A DNA stretch of 64,000 bases from Acidimicrobiia bacterium (lineage in GTDB: Bacteria; Actinomycetota; Acidimicrobiia; Spongiisociales; Spongiisociaceae), in contig JBFGLM010000009.1 in assembly GCA_041576165.1 (NCBI GenBank), positions 32,001 to 96,000 on the forward strand, in the 5' to 3' direction. Shown in pieces: positions 51,947 through 64,000 of the stretch (its first letter is position 1; every line of letters starts with the position of its first letter). The notes beneath the pieces are model-generated. The model did no database searches. It saw nothing but the letters and a program-made list of their open reading frames with translations, and was not told where the DNA came from. The translations under genes were made by a program, and so were the position numbers.

Positions 51947-52780
51947 TCAGCTTGATCGAGCAGTGTTTCGAGCCGTGACCTGTTCGGAGGGAAACGCGCC
52001 TGCTATCCCGCCGTAGAGGCCGAGTGCGATGTCGGCGCCTGACGTCGCCCCGGCTGCGGCGAGCCGTTGACATGCCGCCTCGCACTCACCTGCGTCACCG
52101 GCGATCGCCGCCGTAAAGATCTCGTGGACGGGAGCGATGGCTTGTCCGACGGCCGCACCGCGGAGGTAGGCCAGGCTGATGGTGCTCGTCAGGTGTTGAG
52201 CCTCCCGGCCGATCTCCCAGCTGCCCGGGGCGAGCCGTCCCAAGGCCACCGAGGCCACCAGGAAACCGGCGATCACATCATCGCCCGCGGGCGTAAGCCC
52301 AGGACCGAAACCGAGCAGGCTCCCGCGAGCGTCGAGGTCGAGCGGGTCGGCAGCCCGCGACAGTCGCGACAGGCGTGCCGAATAGGGCGGGGCCATCAGC
52401 GCCGACGCCTGTGCGTGCGGGGCAAGCGCCGTCGTGAGTATGGGACTGGCCGCGGCTACTCGAGCAGGGTGCGGCAGCCGGCCAACCCACGATGCGCCAC
52501 CGGCCAGATCCACACGCCGGCCGTCTAGTTTGATCCGGTCGCCGGTGACCGGCATTTCGCTTCCGGGCTCCGCCTGCAGTTGATCGGCTGTGGTCGTGAC
52601 GTGGATCGGACCCGGTGGAACGTCCCGGCTCGTCAGCACGATCACCTCATCACCGGATTGTGCGTACACGGCCCGCGGGAAAGCTGCGATCACCCGCCAC
52701 GGCCCCATCATCCGTCGCAATGCCGTCATGGCCATGGAACCGATTGTCGTGGCTGTGACCGAGGTATTGGGGAGCATCAC
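51947..52780 (-). CDS. DUF2877 / YlbF (AllH)-like protein
   Basis: LLGFGPGLTPAGDDVIAG, TSTIS, GATSGADIALG; GTGA overlap with DUF1116 gene. Confidence 0.85.
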   Translation of the reverse strand: MMLPNTSVTATTIGSMAMTALRRMMGPWRVIAAFPRAVYAQSGDEVIVLTSRDVPPGPIHVTTTADQLQAEPGSEMPVTGDRIKLDGRRVDLAGGASWVGRLPHPARVAAASPILTTALAPHAQASALMAPPYSARLSRLSRAADPLDLDARGSLLGFGPGLTPAGDDVIAGFLVASVALGRLAPGSWEIGREAQHLTSTISLAYLRGAAVGQAIAPVHEIFTAAIAGDAGECEAACQRLAAAGATSGADIALGLYGGIAGAFPSEQVTARNTARSS

Positions 52781-54204
52781 GCCAGCTTCTCATCGAGCGC
52801 CAGGAGAGCATCCCGGAACACGGACATTGGAGCCACAGCCACGCCGGCCCCCACCTGGCCGCTGCCGTCCGACTTGTGGAGGATGCCCGTGTTGATGGCA
52901 GGGGCGATCTGCAACTCGATCACCTTCCGCACGTCGACCCCGACAGGCGTGCCGGCGTAATCGAGCACCGGCAGTGTGAACCGGGAGCTGCGCCCCAGTG
53001 CGATGTGCGCCATCTCCTCGGTCACAGCCCGGGCGTCGGCCATGGTGCCGCCCACGAATGCTGCCACCGCCGGAGCGCCCGCCGCCGCGGGTCCCCCGAG
53101 TCCGATCAGCTCCAGCACGGCGCTGTCCCCGATGTCGGGAGCGCTCGACTCGGGCCCGTAGCCCGAGTAGTACATCGCATGCTCAACCGGCGGAGCGGAT
53201 GCGGTGAACCAGCCATCACCGGCCCCTGTCACCTGCACGCCGAACGTGGTGCCGTTCCTGGCCATGGTGACAACTGCGCTGGAGTCTGGGACTTCGCTTG
53301 CCCACGCAGTCGTCACCTTGGCGGCGGCCATCGCGATGTTGAGGAAGAACAGGTGGTTACTGCTCCAGTAGCGGGCGAATTCGGACAAGCCGGCATGGGC
53401 GGTCTCGACCAGATCGGCGAACAGACTCCGAAGCAACAGGTTCCCGGTTGCCTGGGTCCGCATGTGGAGGTCGTCGCCCATCTGCACACCCTGGGCGGCC
53501 AGGGCGAAGACGTTGACCGGCTCGGCGGTCCGCAGCGCGGCGGCGAGCAGCGGGCCCCCTACGTCGGCGAGCCACCGCAAGCGATCCACCGCCTCGGGGG
53601 CGTCGACCCCGAACCAGGCGGTCCTGCCCGGGCCCTGGTTGAGCGGCGAGAACGCCCGGCGATCGTCCATGCCGACCACAAACATGGGAGTGGACGGGCC
53701 CATCGCCGACGCCATCGGCACCACCGTGGAGTGATGGTTGGCGGAACCCAGCGTGACGCGGCCTCCGGCCACCAGGCCGGACGCTTCCTCGTGATCTGCG
53801 GCCCAGCCTTCGGCCAATATGGCGGCGAGCACCGACCGGCGCAGAGGATCGCAGAAGTCCGGCCAGTCGAGCGGCGGTCCACAATGCAGGATCGTGCGGT
53901 CCGTCATGTTCGGAACGACTTCGCGAGCGGGCCGCACATCCGTCAACAGCGGCGTCGCAGTATCCAGGCGGCGGAAGACCTCGGCATTTGCCCGGTCGAT
54001 GCGCTCGGCGTGTTGTCCGAACAGCCGGGTCAGCGCGGCGATCGCCGCCTCGTCGCCGGCGGCCGGAATTCGCCAATCCACCGAGACGACTTCGTGGCCC
54101 TGGGCGCGCACAGCCTCGGCGAGGAGGTCGAGACCGACGTTCACCACCCGCACCTCCTGCGGCAGACGGGGCGGTGTCGGCTGGTCGATAAACTCGTCAC
54201 TCAT
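52777..54204 (-). CDS. DUF1116 / YlbE (AllG)/YahG-like protein with N-terminal VNVGL..VDW module
   Basis: ILHCGPP, MGDDLHMR, HLFFLN, MARNGTTFGV, PDIGDSA, PAINTGILH, GQVGAG. Confidence 0.88.
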   Translation of the reverse strand: MSDEFIDQPTPPRLPQEVRVVNVGLDLLAEAVRAQGHEVVSVDWRIPAAGDEAAIAALTRLFGQHAERIDRANAEVFRRLDTATPLLTDVRPAREVVPNMTDRTILHCGPPLDWPDFCDPLRRSVLAAILAEGWAADHEEASGLVAGGRVTLGSANHHSTVVPMASAMGPSTPMFVVGMDDRRAFSPLNQGPGRTAWFGVDAPEAVDRLRWLADVGGPLLAAALRTAEPVNVFALAAQGVQMGDDLHMRTQATGNLLLRSLFADLVETAHAGLSEFARYWSSNHLFFLNIAMAAAKVTTAWASEVPDSSAVVTMARNGTTFGVQVTGAGDGWFTASAPPVEHAMYYSGYGPESSAPDIGDSAVLELIGLGGPAAAGAPAVAAFVGGTMADARAVTEEMAHIALGRSSRFTLPVLDYAGTPVGVDVRKVIELQIAPAINTGILHKSDGSGQVGAGVAVAPMSVFRDALLALDEKLA

Positions 54205-54580
54205 GCGAACGGTTTCCTCCGTGTGGGAGGGTGATTATCGATGCCGCGTGTTCGTGCGGGATTTCGAGCTGGTGGTCGACGAACCCACCGAGGTCGGCGG
54301 CACCAATACCGGACCCCGTCCGACTGAATTGATGTTGTCCGCCGTCGCCTCCTGTTTCGCACTCGCGATTGCCCACGTGGCCCGCAAGCACGACCGGCCG
54401 CTCGATGATCTGCAGGTCACCGCCTCTGGCGAGTACGACGGGCCCCGTTTCAGCAAGGTGTCGGTCATCGCGTCGTCCGCGATCCCCCAGGAGGACCTGC
54501 AATGGCTGGCCGATCGCGCCAGCCGCGTCTGCTACGTCTCGAACTCGTTGGGGTGCGACTTCGCTTATCGGGTCGAGTGA
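54203..54580 (+). CDS. OsmC-family protein, antisense within the cluster
   Basis: VDEPTEVGGTNTGPRPTELMLSAVASC...CYVSNSL; ATG 54203. Confidence 0.85.
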   Translation: MRTVSSVWEGDYRCRVFVRDFELVVDEPTEVGGTNTGPRPTELMLSAVASCFALAIAHVARKHDRPLDDLQVTASGEYDGPRFSKVSVIASSAIPQEDLQWLADRASRVCYVSNSLGCDFAYRVE

Positions 54581-54581
54581 C

Positions 54582-56084
54582 TCAGACAGCACCTGCTACC
54601 GCCTTCGTGCGTTCCACAACGTCATGCTCGGCCTGGTCGAAGAGGTCGATGAACCGGCGGGCCCGTTCTCGGGCTGAGGTTGCCGTCTCGCGCACGTGAC
54701 CCGCCATCCCAACGACTAGATCCGGCTTAGCTCCGCCCTGACCATGCCGGGTCTGGACTATTTTGCGCGGATCGAGCACATCCCGCAGATCGACGTCTCG
54801 GAGGCCGATCGGGGAGCCCAGGATTTCGGCGGCAGCCTCGTCGATCAGCTCGCCCGTCATGTCGACCCCCCGCATTCCGGCGGCGCTCGCCCTCCGCACC
54901 GCGTTGCCAACCACCCGGTAGGCAGTCCGATAGTCGACGCCGGCCTCGAGCATCACTACCTCGGCCAGGTCGGTGGCCTGAGAAAAGCCGCCCTCGAGTT
55001 CGCTGTACAGGCGGGCGCGGTTGACCGATACGGTCGAGACGACCTCGCGCATGAGCTCCGTGACCCGGAGGGCGAGATCCATCGCGCGGGGCACCTCGCC
55101 ATAGGCGTAGATGTAGTTGTCGCTCCGCGCCGAGGGTGTCTTGATCACAGAGAGGAATCCGGCCAACCGCCCGATCAGCACCCCTGATGCGCCCCGCACG
55201 ATCGACAGCGCGTACGGGTTTCGCTTCTGGGGCATCAGCACGCTGGCCCGGGTGTACGGCCCGGCCAGATCGACGTAGTCGAACTCGGGGCTGGCCCAGA
55301 TCTCGAGGTCCTCAGCGAGCTTGCTCTGATTCGAGACCAGGCTGGTAGTCGTCGACAAGACCGAGACCAACACGTCGGTCTGCCACATTGCGTCTCGGGT
55401 GTGTTCGATGATGCCTTCGAACCCGAGTGCATGGGCAAGGACCTGGCGATCGGCCAGCAGCCGCGTGCCGTTGACACAGCCGGCCCCGCCGGGGCTGAGG
55501 TTCACCGACTGGAGCTCCGAGATGAGGCGCTCGATGTCGCGCAGCGCCGGCGGGGCAAATCCCAGCACGTAATGGCCGAACGTCGAGGGCTGGGCATGCT
55601 GTAGATACGTCTGATCCGGCATGTAGGTTTCGGCGTGATCAACCGCCAGATCGGCGAGCGCCAGGGCGAAATCGGCGCCGGCGCGAGCGACGTTCGCGCC
55701 CATCCGGCGCAGCACCACCCGCATGGCCACACGGGCGGCTTCCCGTCTCGGACGTCCGGCGTGGAGCCAGCCGGTTGCGTCTCCGATCTGAGCGGTGAAG
55801 TGCCGTTCCCGGCAGTTGTACGTCTCGCCGTAGGCAGGGTCGTAGGGAAACTCGTCCGCCGGGGTGGCGTGGGCATCGAGCAGTACCCGGGCAAGGTCGC
55901 GGAGAGCCGGCTTGGGCACCAGGTCGCGGGCCGCCAGGTCGAGGATGTGAGCCATGTCGGCCAGGTTGAGGCCGTGATGGAGGAACGGTGCGTCGTCGAT
56001 CTCGGTCGCGAACCCGGCATCGATCAGCGTCTGTGCCGGAGCGAGGGAGGAGGGCCCTGCCAGCCGGTTGGTTACCTCGGTCAC
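54582..56084 (-). CDS. argininosuccinate-lyase-like protein (XcbC-like)
   Basis: LHAGRPRRE, MPDQTYLQHAQPSTFGH, ASVLMPQKRNPY, ATDLAE, YRTAYRVVG; catalytic motifs differ from ArgH. Confidence 0.8.
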   Translation of the reverse strand: MTEVTNRLAGPSSLAPAQTLIDAGFATEIDDAPFLHHGLNLADMAHILDLAARDLVPKPALRDLARVLLDAHATPADEFPYDPAYGETYNCRERHFTAQIGDATGWLHAGRPRREAARVAMRVVLRRMGANVARAGADFALALADLAVDHAETYMPDQTYLQHAQPSTFGHYVLGFAPPALRDIERLISELQSVNLSPGGAGCVNGTRLLADRQVLAHALGFEGIIEHTRDAMWQTDVLVSVLSTTTSLVSNQSKLAEDLEIWASPEFDYVDLAGPYTRASVLMPQKRNPYALSIVRGASGVLIGRLAGFLSVIKTPSARSDNYIYAYGEVPRAMDLALRVTELMREVVSTVSVNRARLYSELEGGFSQATDLAEVVMLEAGVDYRTAYRVVGNAVRRASAAGMRGVDMTGELIDEAAAEILGSPIGLRDVDLRDVLDPRKIVQTRHGQGGAKPDLVVGMAGHVRETATSARERARRFIDLFDQAEHDVVERTKAVAGAV

Positions 56085-57049
56085 ATCGAATCCTTTCGCA
56101 CGACCGCCTCGAGGATGGTCGCAGTGCCACCGGTATGCCAGAAGATGACCGGGCCACGGAGGTCGCCGGCCAGGCCCACCAAGGCGGCGAACGCTTTCGC
56201 CGTGTAGATGGGATCGAGCAGGAGCGACTCAGCGCGCCGGGCGAGGACGGCCGCGGCGACGGCCTTCCCCCACACCTTTCCATACCCGGGACCGCGGGCA
56301 TCGACCACGTCAGGGACGTTCGATGGAGCCGAATTTCCGGCGAGGTCGCTGCACTCTTCGGCAAGCTGGTGGATCCGAGAGATGGCCTCGTCCTGGCTGC
56401 GGCTGACGGAGGCACCGACTAATGGCCAGTCGGCTCCAACGGCGGAAAAGCCCGAGACGATCCCGGCCAGCGTGCCTCCGGACCCCACCGGAACCATTAT
56501 CGCGGCGGGTTCAATGGCGGCTGTCCGGAGCTGGTCCGCCAGCTCGGTTGCGGCCCGGTGATAGCCCAGTGCCCCAACTGCGGTAGCTCCGCCGCGGGGA
56601 ATGATGTACGGCGTGCCCCCGGCCGCTGCGATCTCGCTCGCCCGCGTACGCGCCAGCTCATCGACCGTTGACCGGTCCGGGTTGCCGGTGAAGTGAGCCA
56701 CCGCCCCGCTCTCCTCCGCCAGTCGGAGGTTCACAGGGGGTGCGTCGGGTCGGCTCCCGTAGAGGATCAGCTCGCAGTCGAGCCCGAGCACTTCGGCGGC
56801 TGCAGCTGTGGTCTGGCACAGATTGGAGCGGGGTCCGCCGCACACGAGGATGGACGTCGCGTCAATCTCGCAGGCATCCGCCAGCAGAAACTCGAGCTTG
56901 CGGACCTTGTTCCCGCCCAGGCTGAAACCGGTCAGGTCGTCGCGCTTGATGTGAAGCGCCACGAGCCCGAGCCGCTCTGCGAGCCTGGGTGCGGGGTGCA
57001 GCGGCGTCGGATAGAGGCCGAGAGAAAGCGGCTCGACGTGCCCATTCAT
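56081..57049 (-). CDS. PLP-dependent D-cysteine desulfhydrase/ACC deaminase family enzyme (XcbE-like)
   Basis: KRDDLTGFSLGGNKVRKLEFL, SNLC, VGSGGTLAG, LDPIYTAKA, FWHTGG; ATGA overlap. Confidence 0.88.
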   Translation of the reverse strand: MNGHVEPLSLGLYPTPLHPAPRLAERLGLVALHIKRDDLTGFSLGGNKVRKLEFLLADACEIDATSILVCGGPRSNLCQTTAAAAEVLGLDCELILYGSRPDAPPVNLRLAEESGAVAHFTGNPDRSTVDELARTRASEIAAAGGTPYIIPRGGATAVGALGYHRAATELADQLRTAAIEPAAIMVPVGSGGTLAGIVSGFSAVGADWPLVGASVSRSQDEAISRIHQLAEECSDLAGNSAPSNVPDVVDARGPGYGKVWGKAVAAAVLARRAESLLLDPIYTAKAFAALVGLAGDLRGPVIFWHTGGTATILEAVVRKDSM

Positions 57050-58419
57050 GGCCACTCGTCAGACTCGTCCTGGCGCTCGGTGGTCGCACGAGCGACCGCC
57101 AGGTCGACCATCTCCGCCGCTGCATGTACCGGAGGCGTGTCCAACAGCTCCTCGATCGCCTCGAGAGTCAGGTGCTCGGCGAGTGCGGGTTGGGACAGGA
57201 TGGTTTCTTTCAAGTCACGCCCTGCCGACCAGCCGTCGCGCAGCGCGCTGAACAGCGCGTCCTGGGCACGGTGCTTGCCCAGCGATGTTGCCAGGGTTGC
57301 CAGTACCGCTTCTGATGCCCAGTAACCTCGAGTCTGATCGAGGTTGCGCCGCATGGCGTGCGGATCGACGTCGAGACTGCCCACGAGGTCCCGAGTGATC
57401 CGCAGCGAGGCACCCGTCAGGAGGCAGATCTCGGGAAACGCCACCCACTCCACCTTCCATCCTCGCCCGTCACGCTCGTGGCTCTGTACCGATCCGTCCA
57501 GAATCGTCTGCGCATGGGAACGGATCAGCCGCCCGAGGGTGACGAGGTGCTCGGATCCTTCCGGGTTGCGTTTGTGGGGCATAGTGATGCTGCCGACCGC
57601 CGCTGTGGAGCCGGCTTCGCCGAACTCGCCGATCTCCGGACGTTGGAGCTCATAGATTTCGTCGCCGATCCGAGCGAGGGTTGTGGCGATCATCGCCATG
57701 AGCAGACTGAATTCGACGACCCGGTCGCGGGTGGTCGTCCAGGAGACCACGGGGTCGAACAGCCCCAGCAGGCTGCAGTAATCGGCGCGTACCGCCAGGC
57801 CGTGGTCGCCGAAGAACGCAAGAGTGCCGACAGAACCGGCGAGTTGGCCGACCAGCCACCTGGTCTGACCCTCTCTCAACCGATGCAGGTGACGACGTAT
57901 CTCGTCGGCCCAGGTTGCGATTTTGAAGCCGGCCGTGATCGGGGACCCAATCTGTCCGTGTGTCCGGCCGGCCATGACCGTGGATCGGTGGCGGACCGCC
58001 ATATCGAGGAGGTCCTTCTCGATTGCGCGCAGGTCGCGCCACGCGACGGCGCCCATTCGTTTCATCGTCAGTGCGGCCCACGTGTCGGTGATGTCCTGCA
58101 CGGTGGCGCCGTAGTACACGTACTGCGAGACGTCGGGAGGCAGCACCTGCTCGAGTCCCCGAATCAGGCCCAGCGTGGAATGAGACGTCGCCCGGGTTTC
58201 GGCTGCGATGTAGTCGAGGTCGAGACGATCCGTGTGGGCGTGGGTCGCGATCTGGGCGGCGGCTGCGTGCGGGATCAGCCCGTTCTTCGCCTGCGCATCG
58301 GCAAGCGCTACCAGGATGTCAAGCCAGGCGTCCAACCGCCCGGCCTCGCTGAAATGATCGCGCAACTCGTCCGTTCCCCAGAGGTGCGCATACATGCTGG
58401 AGTCAGCGATGCGGGACAT
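57046..58419 (-). CDS. adenylosuccinate-lyase-like protein (XcbD-like)
   Basis: YYGATVQDITDT, AGRTHGQ, GQLAGSVGT, GSITMPHKRNPE, HERDGRGWKVEW; start set at ATG 58419. Confidence 0.82.
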   Translation of the reverse strand: MSRIADSSMYAHLWGTDELRDHFSEAGRLDAWLDILVALADAQAKNGLIPHAAAAQIATHAHTDRLDLDYIAAETRATSHSTLGLIRGLEQVLPPDVSQYVYYGATVQDITDTWAALTMKRMGAVAWRDLRAIEKDLLDMAVRHRSTVMAGRTHGQIGSPITAGFKIATWADEIRRHLHRLREGQTRWLVGQLAGSVGTLAFFGDHGLAVRADYCSLLGLFDPVVSWTTTRDRVVEFSLLMAMIATTLARIGDEIYELQRPEIGEFGEAGSTAAVGSITMPHKRNPEGSEHLVTLGRLIRSHAQTILDGSVQSHERDGRGWKVEWVAFPEICLLTGASLRITRDLVGSLDVDPHAMRRNLDQTRGYWASEAVLATLATSLGKHRAQDALFSALRDGWSAGRDLKETILSQPALAEHLTLEAIEELLDTPPVHAAAEMVDLAVARATTERQDESDEWP

Positions 58420-58420
58420 G

Positions 58421-59332
58421 TCACCGTGGCGACGGGTCGACCGGCTGCGAGGCCTCGGCTCGGGGGGAGCTCGACGCACTCCCGGCCAGCGCGACTGCGG
58501 CCTCCAGCCCGGCCCGCACGCCGTCCAGCGTCGATCCCCAAGGAACGTAAACCGTGCCACTGCGCACTTCCATGCCCGATTCGAGCAAGCAGCATTTTGT
58601 GAGGATGACTGCGCCATCGGGTGCTGGCCGCCGCTTCGGGCAGAAATCGACGATCGGAGCGGCCTCGCCGTAGAACCACGTGTGGATCTGCTGAGACCGG
58701 GTGCAGCCAATCAAGGTCCAGTCGCGCTTGGGAGGGCGCTGATCGAGATAACTGATGTCGGCGCGGCCTCGGTCGGACGCCGCGCCCGCACACGGTAGGA
58801 GGTACGGACCGTCTCCCACGATGAGGGCGTCCAGATCCTGGATGTCGGCGATCAGCCGGATCGGGGGGAGATCCTCGGAGACGTCGATGATCCGTTGTGC
58901 TTGGTTCAACAACTTCGCCGGATGGGGTGGAGTCACGTCCCGTATGACGATCTCCAGGGGTTGGGGATCCACGATGAAGCTCACATGTTCATATGCGCCG
59001 ACGACGACGACGCAGCGCCTGCCCGGCGCCTCTCGGTGGGCGACCGCCGCCAGGTTCGACGGGATGCCCGTATCGAGGTCGGGATCCCGAACCAGAACGG
59101 TTTCTTCAGGACTGGCGACCAGCTCCACCCGAGTCACGGGGGAGAACAGTGGCTCCTCCGAAGCCTTGTCTACCGCGATCAGCGCGGTGTCGTCGCCGGA
59201 GATCACCACGATGTATGACGTACGTCGGTACACCTCACGCCCGGTGAAGAATTGTTCCAGCGCGTCGGGGTGGAGATCGAAATCGACTTCGGACACGGCA
59301 ACGTTGCGGTACTGGTCGGGAGTGAGGTTCAT
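58421..59332 (-). CDS. conserved Cys-rich protein of unknown function
   Basis: 303 aa coupled to comA by ATGA; YRRT, G.YEHVSFI, LLPC, LIGCTRSQQIH, DFCP, LTKCCLLE, VPWG. Confidence 0.8.
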   Translation of the reverse strand: MNLTPDQYRNVAVSEVDFDLHPDALEQFFTGREVYRRTSYIVVISGDDTALIAVDKASEEPLFSPVTRVELVASPEETVLVRDPDLDTGIPSNLAAVAHREAPGRRCVVVVGAYEHVSFIVDPQPLEIVIRDVTPPHPAKLLNQAQRIIDVSEDLPPIRLIADIQDLDALIVGDGPYLLPCAGAASDRGRADISYLDQRPPKRDWTLIGCTRSQQIHTWFYGEAAPIVDFCPKRRPAPDGAVILTKCCLLESGMEVRSGTVYVPWGSTLDGVRAGLEAAVALAGSASSSPRAEASQPVDPSPR

Positions 59333-60105
59333 GAGGCGTCGCCGCCCGGGGTCAAACCCTCGCCGAGCGTGTCGGCCCGGAGGCCGCGCCGGAGCGCCTC
59401 GAGCGCCAGCACTCCGTCGGGTGCAATGTTGCCGAGGGACACATTGGATCCGAACGCACGGATGAAGGCGACCTGCTGATGCGTTTGGGGAGCTTCGAAC
59501 ACGACCCGATCGAGCGGGACTGCGTTGACAATGGAATCAACGATGTTCCAGCGCAGTGATCCGTCTGATGAGTAGAGACCCGCAGTGCCGCTCTGCCTGC
59601 CCTCGGCGATGAGCCAGCTGGCGCCCGCGTCGAGGTCCTCGCTCATCTCGTGTGCCCAGGTTTCTGGTTCCATCGTCTCGGAGGGATCCTTGCTGCCGGC
59701 TTCGGCCAACACCTGGAACCGGCCGGAGGCCCGCTCGATCAGCTCTCGTTTGGCCGCCCGACCTATGCGGCCGAGGCTGTCGGAGACCTCGAGGCACGGG
59801 AACCCGATATCTCGCGCCCAGGCGAGACATTCGTCGGTGCTCGACTCCAGCCAGGCCGCTTCGAGTAGCGTGCCGCCAACACAGGCGAGGACGCCAGCGT
59901 CCCGAAGGAGCTGCACCTTCTTGTCGATGGTTGGGTCGAGAAAGCTCGTTCCAAACCCGAACTTCCAGATGTCGGTGTACTCGGCGGTGACGTCGAGCAA
60001 TCCCCGGACGTGCTCGATGGGGACGCCCGTGTCGATGACGTGGGTGAGCCCCGACAGGCGCGGCTTCGCCGTGCGGTCGCGCCGGCCAACCGACCAGGGC
60101 GTCAC
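59329..60105 (-). CDS. comA: phosphosulfolactate synthase (ComA/XcbB family)
   Basis: KPR..GLTHVIDTG, DIWKFGFGTS, GGTLLE, LEVSD, EAGSKD, AEGRQSG, FEAP, LEALRRGLRADT; AGGAG RBS before GTG 60105. Confidence 0.9.
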   Translation of the reverse strand: MTPWSVGRRDRTAKPRLSGLTHVIDTGVPIEHVRGLLDVTAEYTDIWKFGFGTSFLDPTIDKKVQLLRDAGVLACVGGTLLEAAWLESSTDECLAWARDIGFPCLEVSDSLGRIGRAAKRELIERASGRFQVLAEAGSKDPSETMEPETWAHEMSEDLDAGASWLIAEGRQSGTAGLYSSDGSLRWNIVDSIVNAVPLDRVVFEAPQTHQQVAFIRAFGSNVSLGNIAPDGVLALEALRRGLRADTLGEGLTPGGDAS

Positions 60106-60219
60106 GTGCCGTCTCCTATACTCAACGTCTGTGCACTTTACTACCATCGTAGAGCGGCCAACCGGGGTCCGACCGGACCGGTGCACCCTGGGTTCATGCT
60201 ACGAGCCCTGCAGTCTCCC

Positions 60220-61170
60220 ATGACCGACCTGGAGCACGTGGTCGCCGCGTTCCGTGACCATGCCGGGGTTGCCCAGAAAGCGCCGATCCGGGTTGTGTCC
60301 GACCTGGTGGGCACGAGCGATTGGCTCACAGGGCCCGGTGACGACGCGGCGTTCGTGCCGACGGGCGGCGGGCGCATCGTCGTCGGAGGCGAGGCCATGT
60401 TTCCGCCTTTCGTCGACGCCGACCCTCGCGGAGCCGGCTTTGCGGCGGTACTCACCAACGTGAACGACCTGGCGGCAATGGGGGCGGTGCCGCTCGGCAT
60501 TCTGGATACGATCGTGGGGCCGGCAGATGTGGCGCAGCTGGTCCTCGCCGGAATGCGTGACGCCAGCGCCATGTACCAGGTGCCGATCATCGGCGGTCAT
60601 CTGACGGTGCGCGATGGGCCGGCGGCGGTTTCGGCGTTTGGTATTGGAGAGGCGAGCGAGCTGCTGTCGGTGCGCAACGTCGAGCCGGGCCAGGCCATTC
60701 TCCTGGCGTGCGCACTGGACGGAACCATGCGAGAAGATTTCCCCTTCTTCGCCTCTTTCGAGCAGCGGCGTGATCAGATGGCCGGGGACGTGCGCACGCT
60801 GGCCGAGGTCGCCCGCTCCAAAGGAGCAGCGGCTGCCAAGGACGTGAGCATGGCCGGGCTGCTTGGATCGCTCGCCATGTTGCTGGAGGCACGTCAGGCG
60901 GGCGCCCTCGTCGACCTCGGGGCGATCCCGGTACCGGTCGGGGTGCCGATCGAGCAGTGGCTCATCTCGTTCCCGGCCTATGCCTTCTTGCTTTGTACAG
61001 ACCGAAGTCTCGTCGATCATTGTCGCCGTCCCTTCCTGGACCGGGGGCTGACGTGCGATGTGATTGGTGAGGTGACCGATTCGGGAGCGCTCGTGGTAGC
61101 AAGCGGAGACGTGCGCGCAACGGTTGTGCAGTTCCCGGATGACGCGTTGACCGGAATCGCCCCCCTGTAG
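60220..61170 (+). CDS. AIR-synthase-related (PurM/HypE/SelD fold) protein, sll0787/NitF-like
   Basis: GDDAAF, FVDADPRGAGF, NVNDLAAMG, IIGGH, AAKDVSMAGLLGSLAMLLE, WLISFP. Confidence 0.88.
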   Translation: MTDLEHVVAAFRDHAGVAQKAPIRVVSDLVGTSDWLTGPGDDAAFVPTGGGRIVVGGEAMFPPFVDADPRGAGFAAVLTNVNDLAAMGAVPLGILDTIVGPADVAQLVLAGMRDASAMYQVPIIGGHLTVRDGPAAVSAFGIGEASELLSVRNVEPGQAILLACALDGTMREDFPFFASFEQRRDQMAGDVRTLAEVARSKGAAAAKDVSMAGLLGSLAMLLEARQAGALVDLGAIPVPVGVPIEQWLISFPAYAFLLCTDRSLVDHCRRPFLDRGLTCDVIGEVTDSGALVVASGDVRATVVQFPDDALTGIAPL

Positions 61171-61180
61171 AGTCCAGCGG

Positions 61181-61708
61181 CTACGGCGTGAGCGGGATCC
61201 GCATCAGTTGGTGCATCACGCCGTAGGCGGGTGCCGGTTGCCCGTCCTGGTGCCAGCCGAGGTGCTCGAAGAACCGGACGTTCGAGAGCTGCACGGTCGC
61301 GATCATCTCCGCACCCCCGAGCCGGCCGGCCGTGCGCACTGCGGTCTGGACCAGGCGCTTGCCCACGACCATCCGGCGGAACGCCGGAAGGACGGCGAGC
61401 CGGTCGCCCTTCCACAGCCCGTCATCATCGATCGGATAGATCCTGACGGTGCCGGCGGCGACGCCCTGCACATCGGCCACGAGGTGGACGGACGATTCGT
61501 CGCGGTCGTGGGCGTCTTCGTCTGTGCCCGCAAAGATCTCCTGTTCGACGACGAAGACCTCGTGCCGGAGCCGGGCGCATATCGATCGTTCCTCAGACGT
61601 TGCCGCAGGGCGGCACACAACCTCGGGCCGCCCTCTGGTGAGCGGCTCGAGGTCAATTGACGGATCGAACGGGGATACGAGTTCGGTCGCGGTCCGCTGA
61701 CGGCTCAC
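61181..61708 (-). CDS. GNAT acetyltransferase, MSMEG_0567 N-terminal/NitE-like
   Basis: LRHEVFVVEQEIF.GTDEDAHD, GTVRIY, WKGDRLAV, ATVQLSNVRFFEHLGW, HQLM. Confidence 0.88.
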   Translation of the reverse strand: MSRQRTATELVSPFDPSIDLEPLTRGRPEVVCRPAATSEERSICARLRHEVFVVEQEIFAGTDEDAHDRDESSVHLVADVQGVAAGTVRIYPIDDDGLWKGDRLAVLPAFRRMVVGKRLVQTAVRTAGRLGGAEMIATVQLSNVRFFEHLGWHQDGQPAPAYGVMHQLMRIPLTP

Positions 61709-62825
61709 GGCGGCGGTACTCCTCTTCGATCAGGCTCATCCCGGAGCATGCCTGGCACCGGGCGCAGCCGGCCGAGACGGTCCAGGATCCGATTCCCCGA
61801 TCCACCAGGTAGGGCACGACCCGGCGATAGATCGATTCCGTGTACGCGGCATCTGGCGGCAGCAGGTCCTCGAGCAGGCTTCCTGGAACGGGCCGGAGCG
61901 GGACAATGAACGGGTAGACCCCCATGTCGATCGCCCGTTTGCAGCCCGCCACGGTCAGGTCGGGATCCTCGCCCATCCCCAGAATCACATAGGTCGATAC
62001 CTGGCCTTCACCAAAGACGTCGACCGCTCGCTCCCAGGCCGCGAAGTACCCCTCGATTCCGGTTCGCGCCTTCGGCGGCGCCACATTCGCGAGCGTCTTG
62101 GGATCGAATGATTCGACATGAATCCCGACTGCACCGACACCCATGTCGCGGAGCCGATCGAGGGTGTCGAGGTCGTCGGGCGGCTCAAACTGAGCCTCGA
62201 CCGGAAGACCGCTGGCGTCGTGCATTGCCTGGGCGCACTTGCCCAAGTAGAGCGCGCCCTTGTCGTGTCCGTACGTGCTGCCCGTCGTCAGCGTGATGTC
62301 GACTGCACCGTCGAGCTCCTTGGCCGCCACGGCCACCTCAGCCAGATGCTCCGGGCGCTTCGCCGGGATCGTGTTGCCGGACTCGAGCGACAGCTCGATC
62401 CCGCAGAACTTGCATTGATCGCTCGTGTTCCAGTAGGCGCATTTCTGGACAACCGTGCTGGCTAATGAATCCAGATGCAGCAGTGCGATCTTCCAGTATG
62501 GGATACCGTCTTCGGTGCTCATGTCGTAGAACTTGGGCCGCGGGGCGACTTCCGCCGATGCCAGACGTTCCGGTCCTTTGAAGATGCCCCAGCTACCCAG
62601 CAGATCCTGGCGCAACACGTACGGCGAGTCCTTGACGAAATCTGCGCCTACCGGTGCGGTGACGTAGACGCCTTCGATGCTGATCATCCCGGCGTCGGAT
62701 GGCCCGGCGCCGCCGACGCGGGTGGTATCGGCGCTGCGCTCGATGCGCAGGCCGACACTCTGGATGTCTGCGATCAGCGGCGCCAGCTCGGGCCGCATCG
62801 CGGAATGGCTACCAGGCTGCGCCAT
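61653..62825 (-). CDS. radical SAM protein, MSMEG_0568/NitD-like
   Basis: GGAGPSD, RPKFYD..T.DGIPYWKIALLH, LASTVVQKC-x8-CKFC, AQFEPP, GQVSTY, C-terminal GCARCQACS. Confidence 0.9.
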   Translation of the reverse strand: MAQPGSHSAMRPELAPLIADIQSVGLRIERSADTTRVGGAGPSDAGMISIEGVYVTAPVGADFVKDSPYVLRQDLLGSWGIFKGPERLASAEVAPRPKFYDMSTEDGIPYWKIALLHLDSLASTVVQKCAYWNTSDQCKFCGIELSLESGNTIPAKRPEHLAEVAVAAKELDGAVDITLTTGSTYGHDKGALYLGKCAQAMHDASGLPVEAQFEPPDDLDTLDRLRDMGVGAVGIHVESFDPKTLANVAPPKARTGIEGYFAAWERAVDVFGEGQVSTYVILGMGEDPDLTVAGCKRAIDMGVYPFIVPLRPVPGSLLEDLLPPDAAYTESIYRRVVPYLVDRGIGSWTVSAGCARCQACSGMSLIEEEYRRREPSADRDRTRIPVRSVN

Positions 62826-63669
62826 AGAGCTCCTCGAAGTTTTGATGGAACACCCGGTTCTTCAGCTCCTCGCTGACGTCGGTGCCCTCGATCTTCCAGT
62901 ACTCGCCCCAGAAGTCGCTCCAAGGCTCATCCGAGGCGAACAGCACCCGGTCCTCGCCGACCCCCCGCTTCTCGATTTCGTGGAGCAACCACCGGGTGCC
63001 GAACCCGACGGTCCAAGTCGTATCGGCATAGACCTTGTAGCCCTCTTCAACCCAGTCGAGGAAGCGGGGCACCAGTTTGATGTGCCCGCTCACGCCACCG
63101 CCGAAATGTACAAGGTACATCTTCACGCGTTTGCCGTACTCCTCGACCAGGGGGATGTAGTTGTTGATGTCCGACCCGCCGCCGGGGCTCGTGTGGAAGT
63201 GGAACACCAGGTCGTGCTCTTCGGCCGCATCGAAACAAGCATCCGCCACTTCGCGCGTGTCATCGTCCCATTCGTTCGGGTTCGGGTTTCCGCCCAGGAG
63301 GAACGTCGTCTTGAGTGCGACCACCCGGCCCTCGCCGGCATGGCCGAGCGATTCGAGCGTCATGTCCTTGTTCTGTGGAAGGAACGAGACCCACAGCGCG
63401 CCCGCCAGCCGGTCGCTGGTCGTCACCGCGTCGAGCATGACCTCGTTCAGCGAGAACGGCTGCGACTGGACGGGGATTCCGTAATTGGGGATCACCAGAC
63501 CCCGCTCAACGCCATACGAATCCAGATGTTTGATATAGGCCGCCGTGTCCGGAAAGTCATAGACGGTGGGGCTCACCGGTTCCTTCAAGTCGTAGAACTG
63601 CCACGGTTCCATGGCGCCGATGTGGCTGTGTCCGTCGATCACTGGTCGGGATACCTTCGGGGAACTCAT
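62809..63669 (-). CDS. amidohydrolase-family metalloenzyme
   Basis: IDGHSHIG (HxH), FHFHT, LVHFGGG, VLFASDEPW; GAGGGAGG RBS. Confidence 0.88.
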   Translation of the reverse strand: MSSPKVSRPVIDGHSHIGAMEPWQFYDLKEPVSPTVYDFPDTAAYIKHLDSYGVERGLVIPNYGIPVQSQPFSLNEVMLDAVTTSDRLAGALWVSFLPQNKDMTLESLGHAGEGRVVALKTTFLLGGNPNPNEWDDDTREVADACFDAAEEHDLVFHFHTSPGGGSDINNYIPLVEEYGKRVKMYLVHFGGGVSGHIKLVPRFLDWVEEGYKVYADTTWTVGFGTRWLLHEIEKRGVGEDRVLFASDEPWSDFWGEYWKIEGTDVSEELKNRVFHQNFEELYGAAW

Positions 63670-63676
63670 GAACCAT

Positions 63677-63819
63677 CCTCCCTCGATCGCCAGGTGAGTG
63701 CCCCTTCGTGCCGGTGGCGGGGCTCACCGGGTAGGTCGCTGCGAAAATGCCCGGCTGCCAGCTGCCGAGGTGGCCATTTACTTTCCGCAACGTCCATCTT
63801 CTATCTGACACACACTATA
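63677..63819 (-). promoter_or_regulatory. -10 element and structured 5' leader of the amidohydrolase-radical SAM-GNAT unit
   Basis: Minus-strand TATAGT at 63819-63814; two long hairpins (63791-63738, 63728-63693) before the RBS. Confidence 0.5.
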
Positions 63820-64000
63820 AACCACTGGTCCCTGTGGCTGCAGTGACGGCAGTGCCGCCGGTACACGCTGTACGTGCCGAGCTCGGCGCCGATTCCGGCC
63901 CACAATTGTGGGACCGGCATCAACTATCCTCAACATTGCATGGCTTTTGGTGGACGGCGCGGCGACGGGTGCTGCGATTCGGGACGAGACTCCCGATGAG

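Follow-up and report, generated by a model that had tools for sequence, protein, structure and literature searches.

A gene island in which a complete bacterial pathway for coenzyme M (CoM) is combined with a Nit1C-type gene core, an AllFGH-like transcarbamylase with its carbamate kinase (CK) and a set of thiol-redox genes begins within a stretch of 64,000 nucleotides from an Acidimicrobiia bacterium of the Actinomycetota (NCBI GenBank assembly GCA_041576165.1, contig JBFGLM010000009.1, positions 32,001 to 96,000 of the forward strand); this whole stretch is referred to here as the window. The island is conserved across genomes, its genes belong to these families, and searches of the host genome turned up no genes for alkene metabolism. 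The same complete CoM pathway lies in conserved islands of many soil and marine Actinomycetota without alkene genes. According to a 2024 paper, the only organisms known to carry genes for CoM biosynthesis are methanogenic archaea and aerobic bacteria that use alkenes (PMC11507031); archaeal-type comABCDE genes, which constitute a different pathway, have been described in a few bacteria (2021 preprint). Judged by its gene content, the island points to an unrecognised role of CoM. We put forward a single stress-linked, non-alkene system in which a CoM-type thiol, a thiol-redox set, the Nit1C core and a carbamoyl route would work as a unit, a proposal to which we give about an even chance of being right.

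An earlier reading of the window from its letters alone (hereafter the sequence-only reading) had named three modules, CoM-type, Nit1C-like and AllG/AllH-like, and the family matches bear these names out. It knew of no description joining the three. The full-text literature that we searched likewise holds none, and it describes neither xcb genes in non-alkene Actinomycetota nor the DUF7714/PF24830 family; further xcb homologues may be given in the supplements of two of the papers (Table S2 of PMC11507031, SI of PMC9457059).

Extent and organisation of the island

Twelve tightly packed genes had been noted between 51947 and 63669, and all of them are present, in the order listed from 63669 down to 51947. 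The confinement of the system to these 11.7 kb did not survive. In 16 kb of sequence fetched past the window end (piece L002, whose position p equals window position 62000+p) the island reaches window-equivalent ~71385, ~7.4 kb past the window end, and the sequence beyond 64000 contributes genes for CK, FdrA/AllF, an MSMEG_0565 glycosyltransferase (GT), MSMEG_0572 and a CoADR-like flavoprotein, and no epoxide-CoM genes. In total the island comprises at least 20 genes over ~19.4 kb, starting at window position 51947. The close packing holds, neighbouring genes overlapping by 4-17 nt or standing 1-10 nt apart; a single operon does not, since the strands alternate, dividing the genes into at least five transcription units within the window and ~7 for the whole island. 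The OXTCase-type gene set is complete only with the extension, AllG and AllH standing at one end of the island, CK and FdrA at the other and the xcb genes between them. To the left, below 51613, the genes are those of a LacI regulator and of a sugar ABC transporter; neither belongs to the open reading frames (ORFs) that have a match in five or more of the 80 related loci described below, and the left border at these genes is real. The island is situated on the chromosome, unlike the plasmid-borne xcb genes of Nocardioides sp. JS614.

The coenzyme M biosynthesis genes

The full xcbB(comA)-A-D-E-C set is adjacent at 54582-60186, on the minus strand, and the best NCBIfam match of each ORF is the corresponding Xcb or ComA model. 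The ComA/XcbB phosphosulfolactate synthase (59329-60186, with a true start probably near 60090-60147) scores 255.8 bits against Pfam ComA and 232.3 bits against TIGR03849, below the cut-off of 280, and is 48% identical to the ComA of JS614. Its neighbour, which had been taken for a Cys-rich unknown, is a member of the XcbA family (58421-59332; NF052538, 310.2 bits, cut-off 150; PF24830/DUF7714, 283 bits) and a putative [2Fe-2S] reductase. In Xanthobacter, XcbA is a [2Fe-2S] protein that carries out the last Xcb step, the reduction of sulfoethanethioaldehyde to CoM (PMC9457059). Five cysteines of the island protein, C181, C210, C231, C247 and C248, are common to the XcbA proteins of JS614 and Py2, the latter having been studied biochemically, and are invariant in 19 relatives.

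Three further enzymes complete the set. The XcbD-like member of the adenylosuccinate-lyase family (57046-58419; NF052536, 577.6 bits, cut-off 600) is 50% identical to its JS614 and 42% to its Py2 counterpart and would add cysteine to sulfoacrylate. The XcbE-like pyridoxal phosphate (PLP) enzyme (56081-57055; NF052537, 264.2 bits, below the cut-off of 450) shows 44% and 41% identity to the JS614 and Py2 proteins, respectively, and has CuyA as its runner-up model at 231.5 bits. The XcbC-like lyase of the aspartase/fumarase family (54582-56084; NF052535, 419 bits, below the cut-off of 575), 47% identical to JS614 XcbC and 38% to Py2 XcbC, is the candidate for phosphate elimination from phosphosulfolactate. 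Measured by the NCBIfam cut-offs, XcbA passes and XcbC, XcbD, XcbE and ComA (TIGR03849) fall short; the Pfam ComA match passes. The plasmid annotations of JS614 and Xanthobacter Py2 supplied the reference proteins for the Xcb searches and for the alkene searches below, and each JS614 and Py2 Xcb protein finds its best match in the host genome in its island counterpart.

In a quick maximum-likelihood tree of XcbA (a quick IQ-TREE version, midpoint-rooted for display only) the 84 island-type rows form one clade with an SH-aLRT support of 98%, which leaves out JS614, Py2 and two short-contig sequences from the phylum sample described below.

Alkene metabolism

In bacteria the Xcb pathway has no established use other than alkene utilisation (PMC9457059, PMC11507031), and the island might accordingly be an ordinary CoM supply for epoxide, alkene or vinyl chloride metabolism whose catabolic genes lie elsewhere in the genome, all the more as the assembly, 96.5% complete and in 161 contigs, could be missing genes. 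The searches make this explanation hardly credible. A di-iron monooxygenase (PF02332) was found neither in the host genome nor in five further carriers of the island, the same search detecting both subunits (2 matches) on the JS614 plasmid as a control. EtnA and EtnC gave no tblastn match in the host genome, the best match there to EaCoMT has 28-30% identity and falls on generic short MetE-like proteins on other contigs, and the best match to 2-KPCC has 28% identity. The genome is therefore without an SDIMO and without a close EaCoMT or 2-KPCC, which argues for a non-alkene context. The flanks of the island are equally free of EaCoMT, alkene monooxygenase and 2-KPCC genes; the sequence-only reading had allowed that epoxide-CoM genes just outside the window might account for the CoM genes, and the neighbouring sequence contains none. 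The position of the island XcbA outside the alkene-type branch of the tree likewise speaks against an alkene pathway.

The host genome holds four short MetE-like (Meth_synt_2) paralogs, on contigs C83, C45, C43 and C106 (L004-L007), one of which passes PRK09121 'methionine synthase' and one PRK06520. As EaCoMT orthologs they were ruled out: they match generic methionine-synthase models and are encoded on other contigs.

Conservation across genomes

A search of a large protein collection with the XcbA-like protein gave 1965 relatives at E<=1e-5, 19 of which were aligned to build a profile. A scan with this profile of one genome per species, covering 185,579 species, returned 433 stretches with a relative; the best 80, those most like the query, were examined with flanks of up to 10 kb on each side, and 43 of them have the full 10-kb flanks. 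Eighteen island proteins were compared with the 80 loci by tblastn, AllH being counted at >=40% coverage. Among the 43 full-flank loci, OsmC is present in 42, XcbD, XcbC and ComA in 41 each and XcbE in 38; AllG follows with 37, MSMEG_0572 and GNAT with 36 each and FdrA with 35; AIRS, the radical SAM protein, CK, GT and the CoADR-like protein occur in 34 each. AllH (16), the conserved protein hyp239 (11) and the amidohydrolase (9) are divergent or lineage-limited. At least three xcb genes, at least three Nit1C-type genes and at least two of AllG, CK and FdrA occur together in 30 of the 43, and all but one of the 41 xcb-bearing loci contain at least one Nit1C-type gene. Wherever the AIRS gene is found (34/43 loci) it stands back-to-back with ComA.

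The gene set is kept even where the locus has been rearranged (L031, L034 and the pair L019 and L180 are examples). In Microbacteriaceae XcbA has moved beside the flavoprotein gene, ComA-XcbD-E-C being 10 kb off on the same contig, and five of five tested genomes with loci lacking the radical SAM gene within 10 kb carry an MSMEG_0568-family gene elsewhere that passes the cut-off. Of 401 genomes drawn evenly from the phylum, 11 encode XcbA and 26 give a strong MSMEG_0568-family match (>=266 bits), with 6 doing both. The island is present in all eight sampled XcbA genomes with a readable context, the other three having XcbA on contigs <=6 kb. Whether the modules are co-conserved, on which the sequence-only reading had hung its proposal, is hence answered in the affirmative, and chance adjacency is ruled out by the co-conservation across loci together with its persistence through rearrangements.

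Carriers comprise Acidimicrobiia, which are closest (XcbA identity 63-68%), Nocardioidaceae, Pseudonocardiaceae, Streptosporangiaceae, Intrasporangiaceae and Microbacteriaceae, as well as a Streptomyces, a Planosporangium and one metagenome-assembled genome (MAG) labelled Dormiibacterota; cultured species of Pseudonocardia, Planosporangium, Nocardioides and Streptomyces are among them. One locus labelled Acidobacteria (L011) has an XcbA nested within the Acidimicrobiia clade and an island collinear with theirs, which suggests a binning or label error. Two MAGs labelled Nostocoides and Nocardioides (L084 and L085) have identical XcbA sequences.

The Nit1C-type core

Four of the five core proteins pass the curated cut-offs of their families. 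The MSMEG_0568-family radical SAM protein (61653-62825, minus strand; TIGR04043, 372.9 bits, cut-off 303.7) has no PDB relative that could be found by sequence. Its cysteines are spaced C-x8-C-x2-C (CAYWNTSDQCKFC) as opposed to the canonical C-x3-C-x2-C, and a CxxCxxC stands at its C-terminus. The GNAT protein of the MSMEG_0567/Sll0786 family (61181-61708, minus strand) scores 103.3 bits against TIGR04045 (cut-off 68.45), and the DsrE-like MSMEG_0572/Sll0783 protein (L002:6286-6771, minus strand) 214.4 bits (cut-off 109.85); in the latter one Cys is kept in >=95% of 56 sequences, canonical Nit1C ones included. The MSMEG_0565 glycosyltransferase, of the GT4 type (~L002:4469-5641, plus strand; 356.6 bits, cut-off 259.85), has as its next-best NCBIfam matches MshA and BshA, with which the synthesis of mycothiol and bacillithiol, respectively, begins. 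The fifth protein is an sll0787-like member of the PurM/AIRS superfamily (~60196-61170, plus strand, starting at ATG 60196 or 60220), which scores 244.8 bits against TIGR04049, below the cut-off of 321.3. It also matches methanogenesis marker 2 (180 bits), TIGR04050 (147.9 bits against a cut-off of 312.2) and, weakly, the HypE model (24 bits, cut-off 251.6).

Other parts of Nit1C are missing from the island. It contains no Nit6803-type nitrilase, for which the best match in the host genome (171.1 bits, cut-off 502.6) lies on another contig, and no MSMEG_0569 flavoprotein, for which the best matches (391 bits, cut-off 498.35) lie on other contigs; MSMEG_0570 had no match among the island ORFs scanned against NCBIfam, a scan that included no search aimed at this family. 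A canonical Nit1C cluster elsewhere in the host genome was ruled out, the second radical SAM match reaching only 47 bits and the nitrilase and 0569 matches staying below their cut-offs. Because neither of these is found above cut-off in the host genome, the nitrilase branch of Nit1C appears to have been replaced by an OXTCase-like/CK branch.

Deletion of MSMEG_0565-0572 renders Mycobacterium smegmatis sensitive to peroxide, expression of the cluster raises the NADPH/NADP ratio, and nitrogen starvation induces it >500-fold via GlnR (PMC6039565). In Pseudomonas, Nit1C has been tied to cyanide assimilation.

The carbamoyl genes

The AllH-like (DUF2877) subunit (51947-52780; PF11392, 78.3 bits, cut-off 25) and the AllG-like (DUF1116) subunit (52777-54204; PF06545, 214 bits) are encoded on the minus strand at the left end of the island. 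At the other end, on the plus strand, CK begins at 63747-64000 in the window and is cut by the window end (full ORF L002:1747-2934, true start probably near 63990-64002). It passes the subfamily model NF009007 (279.9 bits, cut-off 266) and remains below the cut-off of TIGR00746 (arcC; 330 bits against 358). FdrA/AllF follows at L002:2931-4469, likewise on the plus strand, with 407.1 bits against NF004760, below the cut-off of 433. Divergent from CK stands an Amidohydro_2 protein of the metal-dependent hydrolase/decarboxylase family (62809-63669, minus strand; PF04909, 60.6 bits), for which no PDB relative was found by sequence; its identity is 87-89% in Acidimicrobiia loci, 74-77% in genomes of families f20 and f28 and 67-68% in the xcb-less variant described below. 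Allantoin genes did not turn up among the scanned island ORFs, no genome search having been aimed at them.

In Escherichia coli AllFGH (OXTCase) forms carbamoyl phosphate and oxamate from oxalurate and phosphate (PMC11326118), and AllK/YbcF is a catabolic carbamate kinase that yields ATP (PMC11326118, PMC9843812). With CK and FdrA past the window end, carbamoyl chemistry becomes more plausible than the window alone allowed; the thiocarbamate/thiocyanate intermediate and the new cofactor that the sequence-only reading had raised are speculative.

Thiol-redox genes and conserved orphans

The OsmC/Ohr-type peroxiredoxin (~54203-54580, plus strand; Pfam OsmC, 59.7 bits) has both Cys residues at the usual OsmC positions, which we take to be the catalytic ones. 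Its start is uncertain and may be ATG 54203, GTG 54221 or GTG 54248. The first of these, if used, overlaps the divergent AllG start codon within a CATG palindrome (54202-54205), and there would therefore be no intergenic space for a promoter between OsmC and AllG. The CoADR/Nox-class flavoprotein (L002:7198-8520, minus strand) combines the domains Pyr_redox_2, Pyr_redox and Pyr_redox_dim. In the PDB it comes closest to NADH oxidase and CoADR (E 1e-57 to 1e-47) and to CoA-persulfide reductase, it reaches 236.6 bits against the CoADR equivalog with a cut-off of 578.8, and its single N-terminal Cys (YSPCGIPF), presumably the redox Cys, aligns with the Cys of the best PDB match, 6pfz. On the JS614 plasmid an FAD-dependent oxidoreductase encoded beside comA (L088:17662-19032) is 28.5% identical to this protein, and by this identity a relative of the flavoprotein disulfide reductases adjoins xcb in JS614 as it does in the island.

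Two further genes have no family. The protein hyp239 (L002:5658-6377, minus strand) has no Pfam, NCBIfam or PDB relative. A more sensitive search placed it in 39 related loci, usually directly upstream of the radical SAM gene; the family is ~200 aa long and mostly helical-looking, and only a small number of its residues are fixed (A, R, R and G invariant, Y, L, E and W nearly so). Between the CoADR-like and MSMEG_0572 genes, a small ORF of ~78 aa (~L002:6948-7190, window-equivalent ~68948-69190, minus strand) bears the signature WLRxNSEHYLL...MPGSHRxxW; it matches no Pfam or NCBIfam family, and tblastn finds counterparts in 41 of the 80 loci.

Loci without xcb and the modularity of the island

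The four canonical Nit1C loci without XcbA that were examined (L138-L141) have only MSMEG_0572, radical SAM, GNAT, AIRS and GT genes, at 32-47% identity. Another variant, seen in three genomes of one family (L142-L144), possesses AllG, AIRS, GNAT, the radical SAM protein, the amidohydrolase, hyp239, MSMEG_0572 and CK, with FdrA and GT seen in one locus, and is devoid of xcb, CoADR and OsmC genes; its genomes have only a lone, distant ComA. The gene content of this variant places AllFGHK, the amidohydrolase and hyp239 with the Nit1C-type core. The CoADR-like protein and OsmC, in turn, track xcb, since they are present in 34 and 42 of the 43 XcbA loci, respectively, and in none of the seven radical SAM loci without xcb. 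Between CK and FdrA in one xcb-less locus (L142:13202-17271) there are genes for a class I/II aminotransferase, a luciferase-like monooxygenase and an Orn/DAP/Arg-type PLP decarboxylase.

This modularity lends some substance to an explanation in which the CoM thiol, gpr-type and OXTCase plus CK modules merely share regulation by nitrogen or oxidative stress and exchange no intermediates. The modules do occur apart, L138-L141 being without AllFGHK and xcb and L142-L144 without xcb; in Pseudonocardia-type loci a block of xcb, OsmC, CoADR and MSMEG_0572 genes lies 15-20 kb from the radical SAM gene; and the alternating strands yield ~7 transcription units. Yet the parts are interleaved, with AllG/AllH and CK/FdrA at opposite ends and AIRS back-to-back with ComA, the same set is reassembled after rearrangement in distant lineages, and the separate clade of island-type XcbA (98% SH-aLRT) argues for a long joint evolution. 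We regard independent modules as unlikely.

The variability around a constant core can also be read biosynthetically. The Xcb enzymes would then provide the starting unit of a new sulfonated metabolite, low-molecular-weight thiol or cofactor, be it CoM or one of their intermediates (sulfoacrylate or 3-sulfopropionyl-cysteine, for instance); the Nit1C-type core would tailor this unit together with AllFGH and CK acting anabolically as carbamoyl donor, and CoADR, OsmC and MSMEG_0572 would serve the product. The core is accompanied by varying 'feeders', namely xcb, the aminotransferase/luciferase-like/PLP decarboxylase set or the nitrilase and flavoprotein; the GT4 has MshA and BshA as next-best matches, and a GT4, a GNAT, a disulfide reductase and an Ohr/OsmC protein make up the usual toolkit of low-molecular-weight thiols; the Xcb enzymes, moreover, score under curated cut-offs. 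Against this, all five Xcb steps are kept, including XcbA, which argues for CoM itself as the final product and against an intermediate of the first steps; in E. coli the homologous AllFGH and AllK serve catabolism; no ligase, NRPS, PKS or exporter is conserved in the island; and canonical Nit1C has links with NADPH balance and with the assimilation of nitrogen and cyanide but none with a known metabolite. We hold the biosynthetic explanation, taken with its tailoring steps, to be possible, if somewhat unlikely.

Regulator and non-coding elements

The island has a regulator of its own, a helix–turn–helix (HTH) protein with HTH_3 and cupin domain matches (L002:8756-9385, minus strand). In the divergent region between the amidohydrolase and CK genes an 18-nt operator-like motif (63920-63937, minus strand) is identical in the host locus, L010 and L011. 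A second copy (L002:9425-9438, window-equivalent 71425) lies 40 nt upstream of the HTH-cupin gene with 1 mismatch in the 14-nt core. Allowing <=3 mismatches, the core occurs three times in the cluster against 0.43 expected from its 103 genome matches. The recurrence of the motif upstream of the regulator gene suggests that the HTH-cupin protein may autoregulate and may control at least the radical SAM and CK operons. A conserved element of ~45 nt with a TATAGT -10-like hexamer (63772-63818, minus strand) lies ~110-150 nt upstream of the amidohydrolase start and is near-invariant in the host locus and four Acidimicrobiia loci.

Neither the 45-nt block nor the 18-nt motif matches Rfam. No known RNA element was found at E<=1 except a sub-threshold match to an sRNA inside allG (18.8 bits against 45), which is taken as chance, and a promoter and terminator scan returned nothing above shuffled background. 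The sequencing runs listed as containing the locus are DNA runs of metagenomes, with no RNA run among them. Three short palindromes of 14, 12 and 13 nt, perfect or near-perfect, occur between the amidohydrolase and CK genes at 63861-63910 and are not conserved in the aligned related loci. Farther out, ~4 kb past the island, L002:13163-14626 (plus strand) encodes an alternate (N-type) F1F0 ATPase beta subunit (TIGR03305, 729.9 bits, cut-off 752).

Proposed function

In the single stress-linked system that we favour, we infer the CoM product, the use of the thiol, the carbamoyl flux and the inducing condition from the genes as follows. By homology and gene order, xcbB-A-D-E-C would make CoM, or a very close sulfonate thiol, from phosphoenolpyruvate, sulfite and cysteine. 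The CoADR/Nox flavoprotein, OsmC/Ohr, MSMEG_0572 and the 78-aa ORF would keep this thiol reduced and spend it on peroxide and disulfide stress, a role suggested for the set by its families and by the way in which CoADR and OsmC track xcb. The Nit1C/gpr core (GT 0565, GNAT 0567, radical SAM 0568, the PurM-like protein and 0572) would process a nitrogenous intermediate. An AllF/G/H-like complex, together with CK and the amidohydrolase, might stand in for the nitrilase and flavoprotein of Nit1C, the nitrogen of the intermediate leaving as a carbamoyl group that would pass through carbamoyl phosphate to NH3, CO2 and ATP. The island would be switched on by its own HTH-cupin regulator under nitrogen or oxidative stress.

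Several points weigh against such a unit. The genomes compared include kin and are not independent, eight of the 11 sampled XcbA genomes belonging to one family, and the locus sample consists of the 80 of 433 stretches that are nearest to the query. The island is split into ~7 transcription units. The scores of XcbC, XcbD, XcbE, ComA (TIGR03849), the AIRS-like protein, FdrA and arcC below their cut-offs make altered specificities possible. The existence of a variant without xcb, CoADR and OsmC means that the Nit1C/AllFGHK part needs no CoM and that the thiol is not obligatory for this module; xcb could feed a building block and not a redox cofactor. Finally, Nocardioides, Pseudonocardia and Streptomyces have mycothiol, and an extra redox thiol is not obviously needed.

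A bolder extension of the unitary system, which we regard as quite improbable, would make CoM a widespread cofactor of aerobic Actinomycetota, produced by hundreds of species outside alkene metabolism, and in this island the thiol on which a carbamoyl/cyano shuttle runs. CK and the AllFGH-type transferase, to which FdrA contributes a CoA(thiol)-binding fold, would connect carbamoyl phosphate with S-carbamoyl-CoM in both directions, and the PurM/HypE-like enzyme would do the same for S-carbamoyl-CoM and S-cyano-CoM. When nitrogen is short, a new route would thereby lead between cyanide, nitrile or ureido nitrogen and NH3 plus ATP, the thiol being kept up by the CoADR-like protein, OsmC and MSMEG_0572.

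If CoM is really made from these genes, it occurs far more widely and serves in more ways than has been assumed, and the detection of CoM or ComA in environmental samples no longer marks methanogens or alkene oxidisers. The island would also offer a handle on two long-standing problems, the chemistry of Nit1C/gpr, with its links to cyanide assimilation, peroxide resistance and NADPH balance, and the range of substrates used by AllFGH, a transcarbamylase family discovered only recently. The cultured carriers make these questions about CoM directly testable.

Comparison with known systems

The Xcb operons of Xanthobacter autotrophicus Py2 (xcbABCDE) and Nocardioides sp. JS614 (pNOCA01) share with the island all five gene families, in adjacent positions. 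With JS614 the gene order ComA-XcbA-XcbD-XcbE-XcbC is identical and protein identity is 44-50%, compared to 36-42% with Py2. In contrast to these operons, the island has no EaCoMT, alkene monooxygenase, 2-KPCC or hydroxypropyl-CoM dehydrogenase context, its xcb genes are embedded among Nit1C, AllFGHK and thiol-redox genes, and its XcbA forms a separate clade.

The Nit1C/gpr clusters (MSMEG_0565-0572, Synechocystis sll0783-0787 and Pseudomonas nit) resemble the island in that GT 0565, GNAT 0567, radical SAM 0568 and 0572 pass their cut-offs and are clustered, and in that a PurM-like gene adjoins GNAT. They differ in the AIRS-like protein, which in the island is unfused and scores below cut-off, in the radical SAM protein, which is only 44-46% identical to canonical ones, and in the addition of AllFGH, CK, the amidohydrolase, hyp239, xcb, CoADR and OsmC to the island. 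All four families of the E. coli allF-allG-allH-allK set (FdrA-like, DUF1116, DUF2877 and carbamate kinase) are represented; in the island, however, the genes are split between its two ends and the FdrA and arcC scores are under their cut-offs, the carbamate kinase subfamily model being passed. With HypF and HypE of [NiFe] hydrogenases the likeness is an analogy only: a PurM-superfamily protein adjoins genes that handle carbamoyl phosphate and a thiol, but the island is without a HypF-type carbamoyltransferase, HypC and HypD, and its HypE score is far under the cut-off.

On the redox side, the island flavoprotein shares with the CoADR/NADH oxidase class a single Cys, FAD and NAD(P)H domains and a dimerisation domain. 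Methanogens use CoM as a redox thiol by means of a CoM disulfide reductase and a CoM-dependent methanoredoxin (PMC7278568). Among low-molecular-weight thiol systems at large (CoADR, the methanogen CoM disulfide reductase and methanoredoxin, the MshA and BshA thiols and Ohr/OsmC), the resemblance lies in a CoADR/Nox flavoprotein, an OsmC, a GT4 and a GNAT near a thiol operon; the difference is that the best PDB relatives of the island flavoprotein are not CoM-specific. Taken singly, the Xcb operon, Nit1C/gpr and allFGHK are each of the same kind as the island, yet the island fails the defining features of each of them, and there is a real chance that it performs new chemistry.

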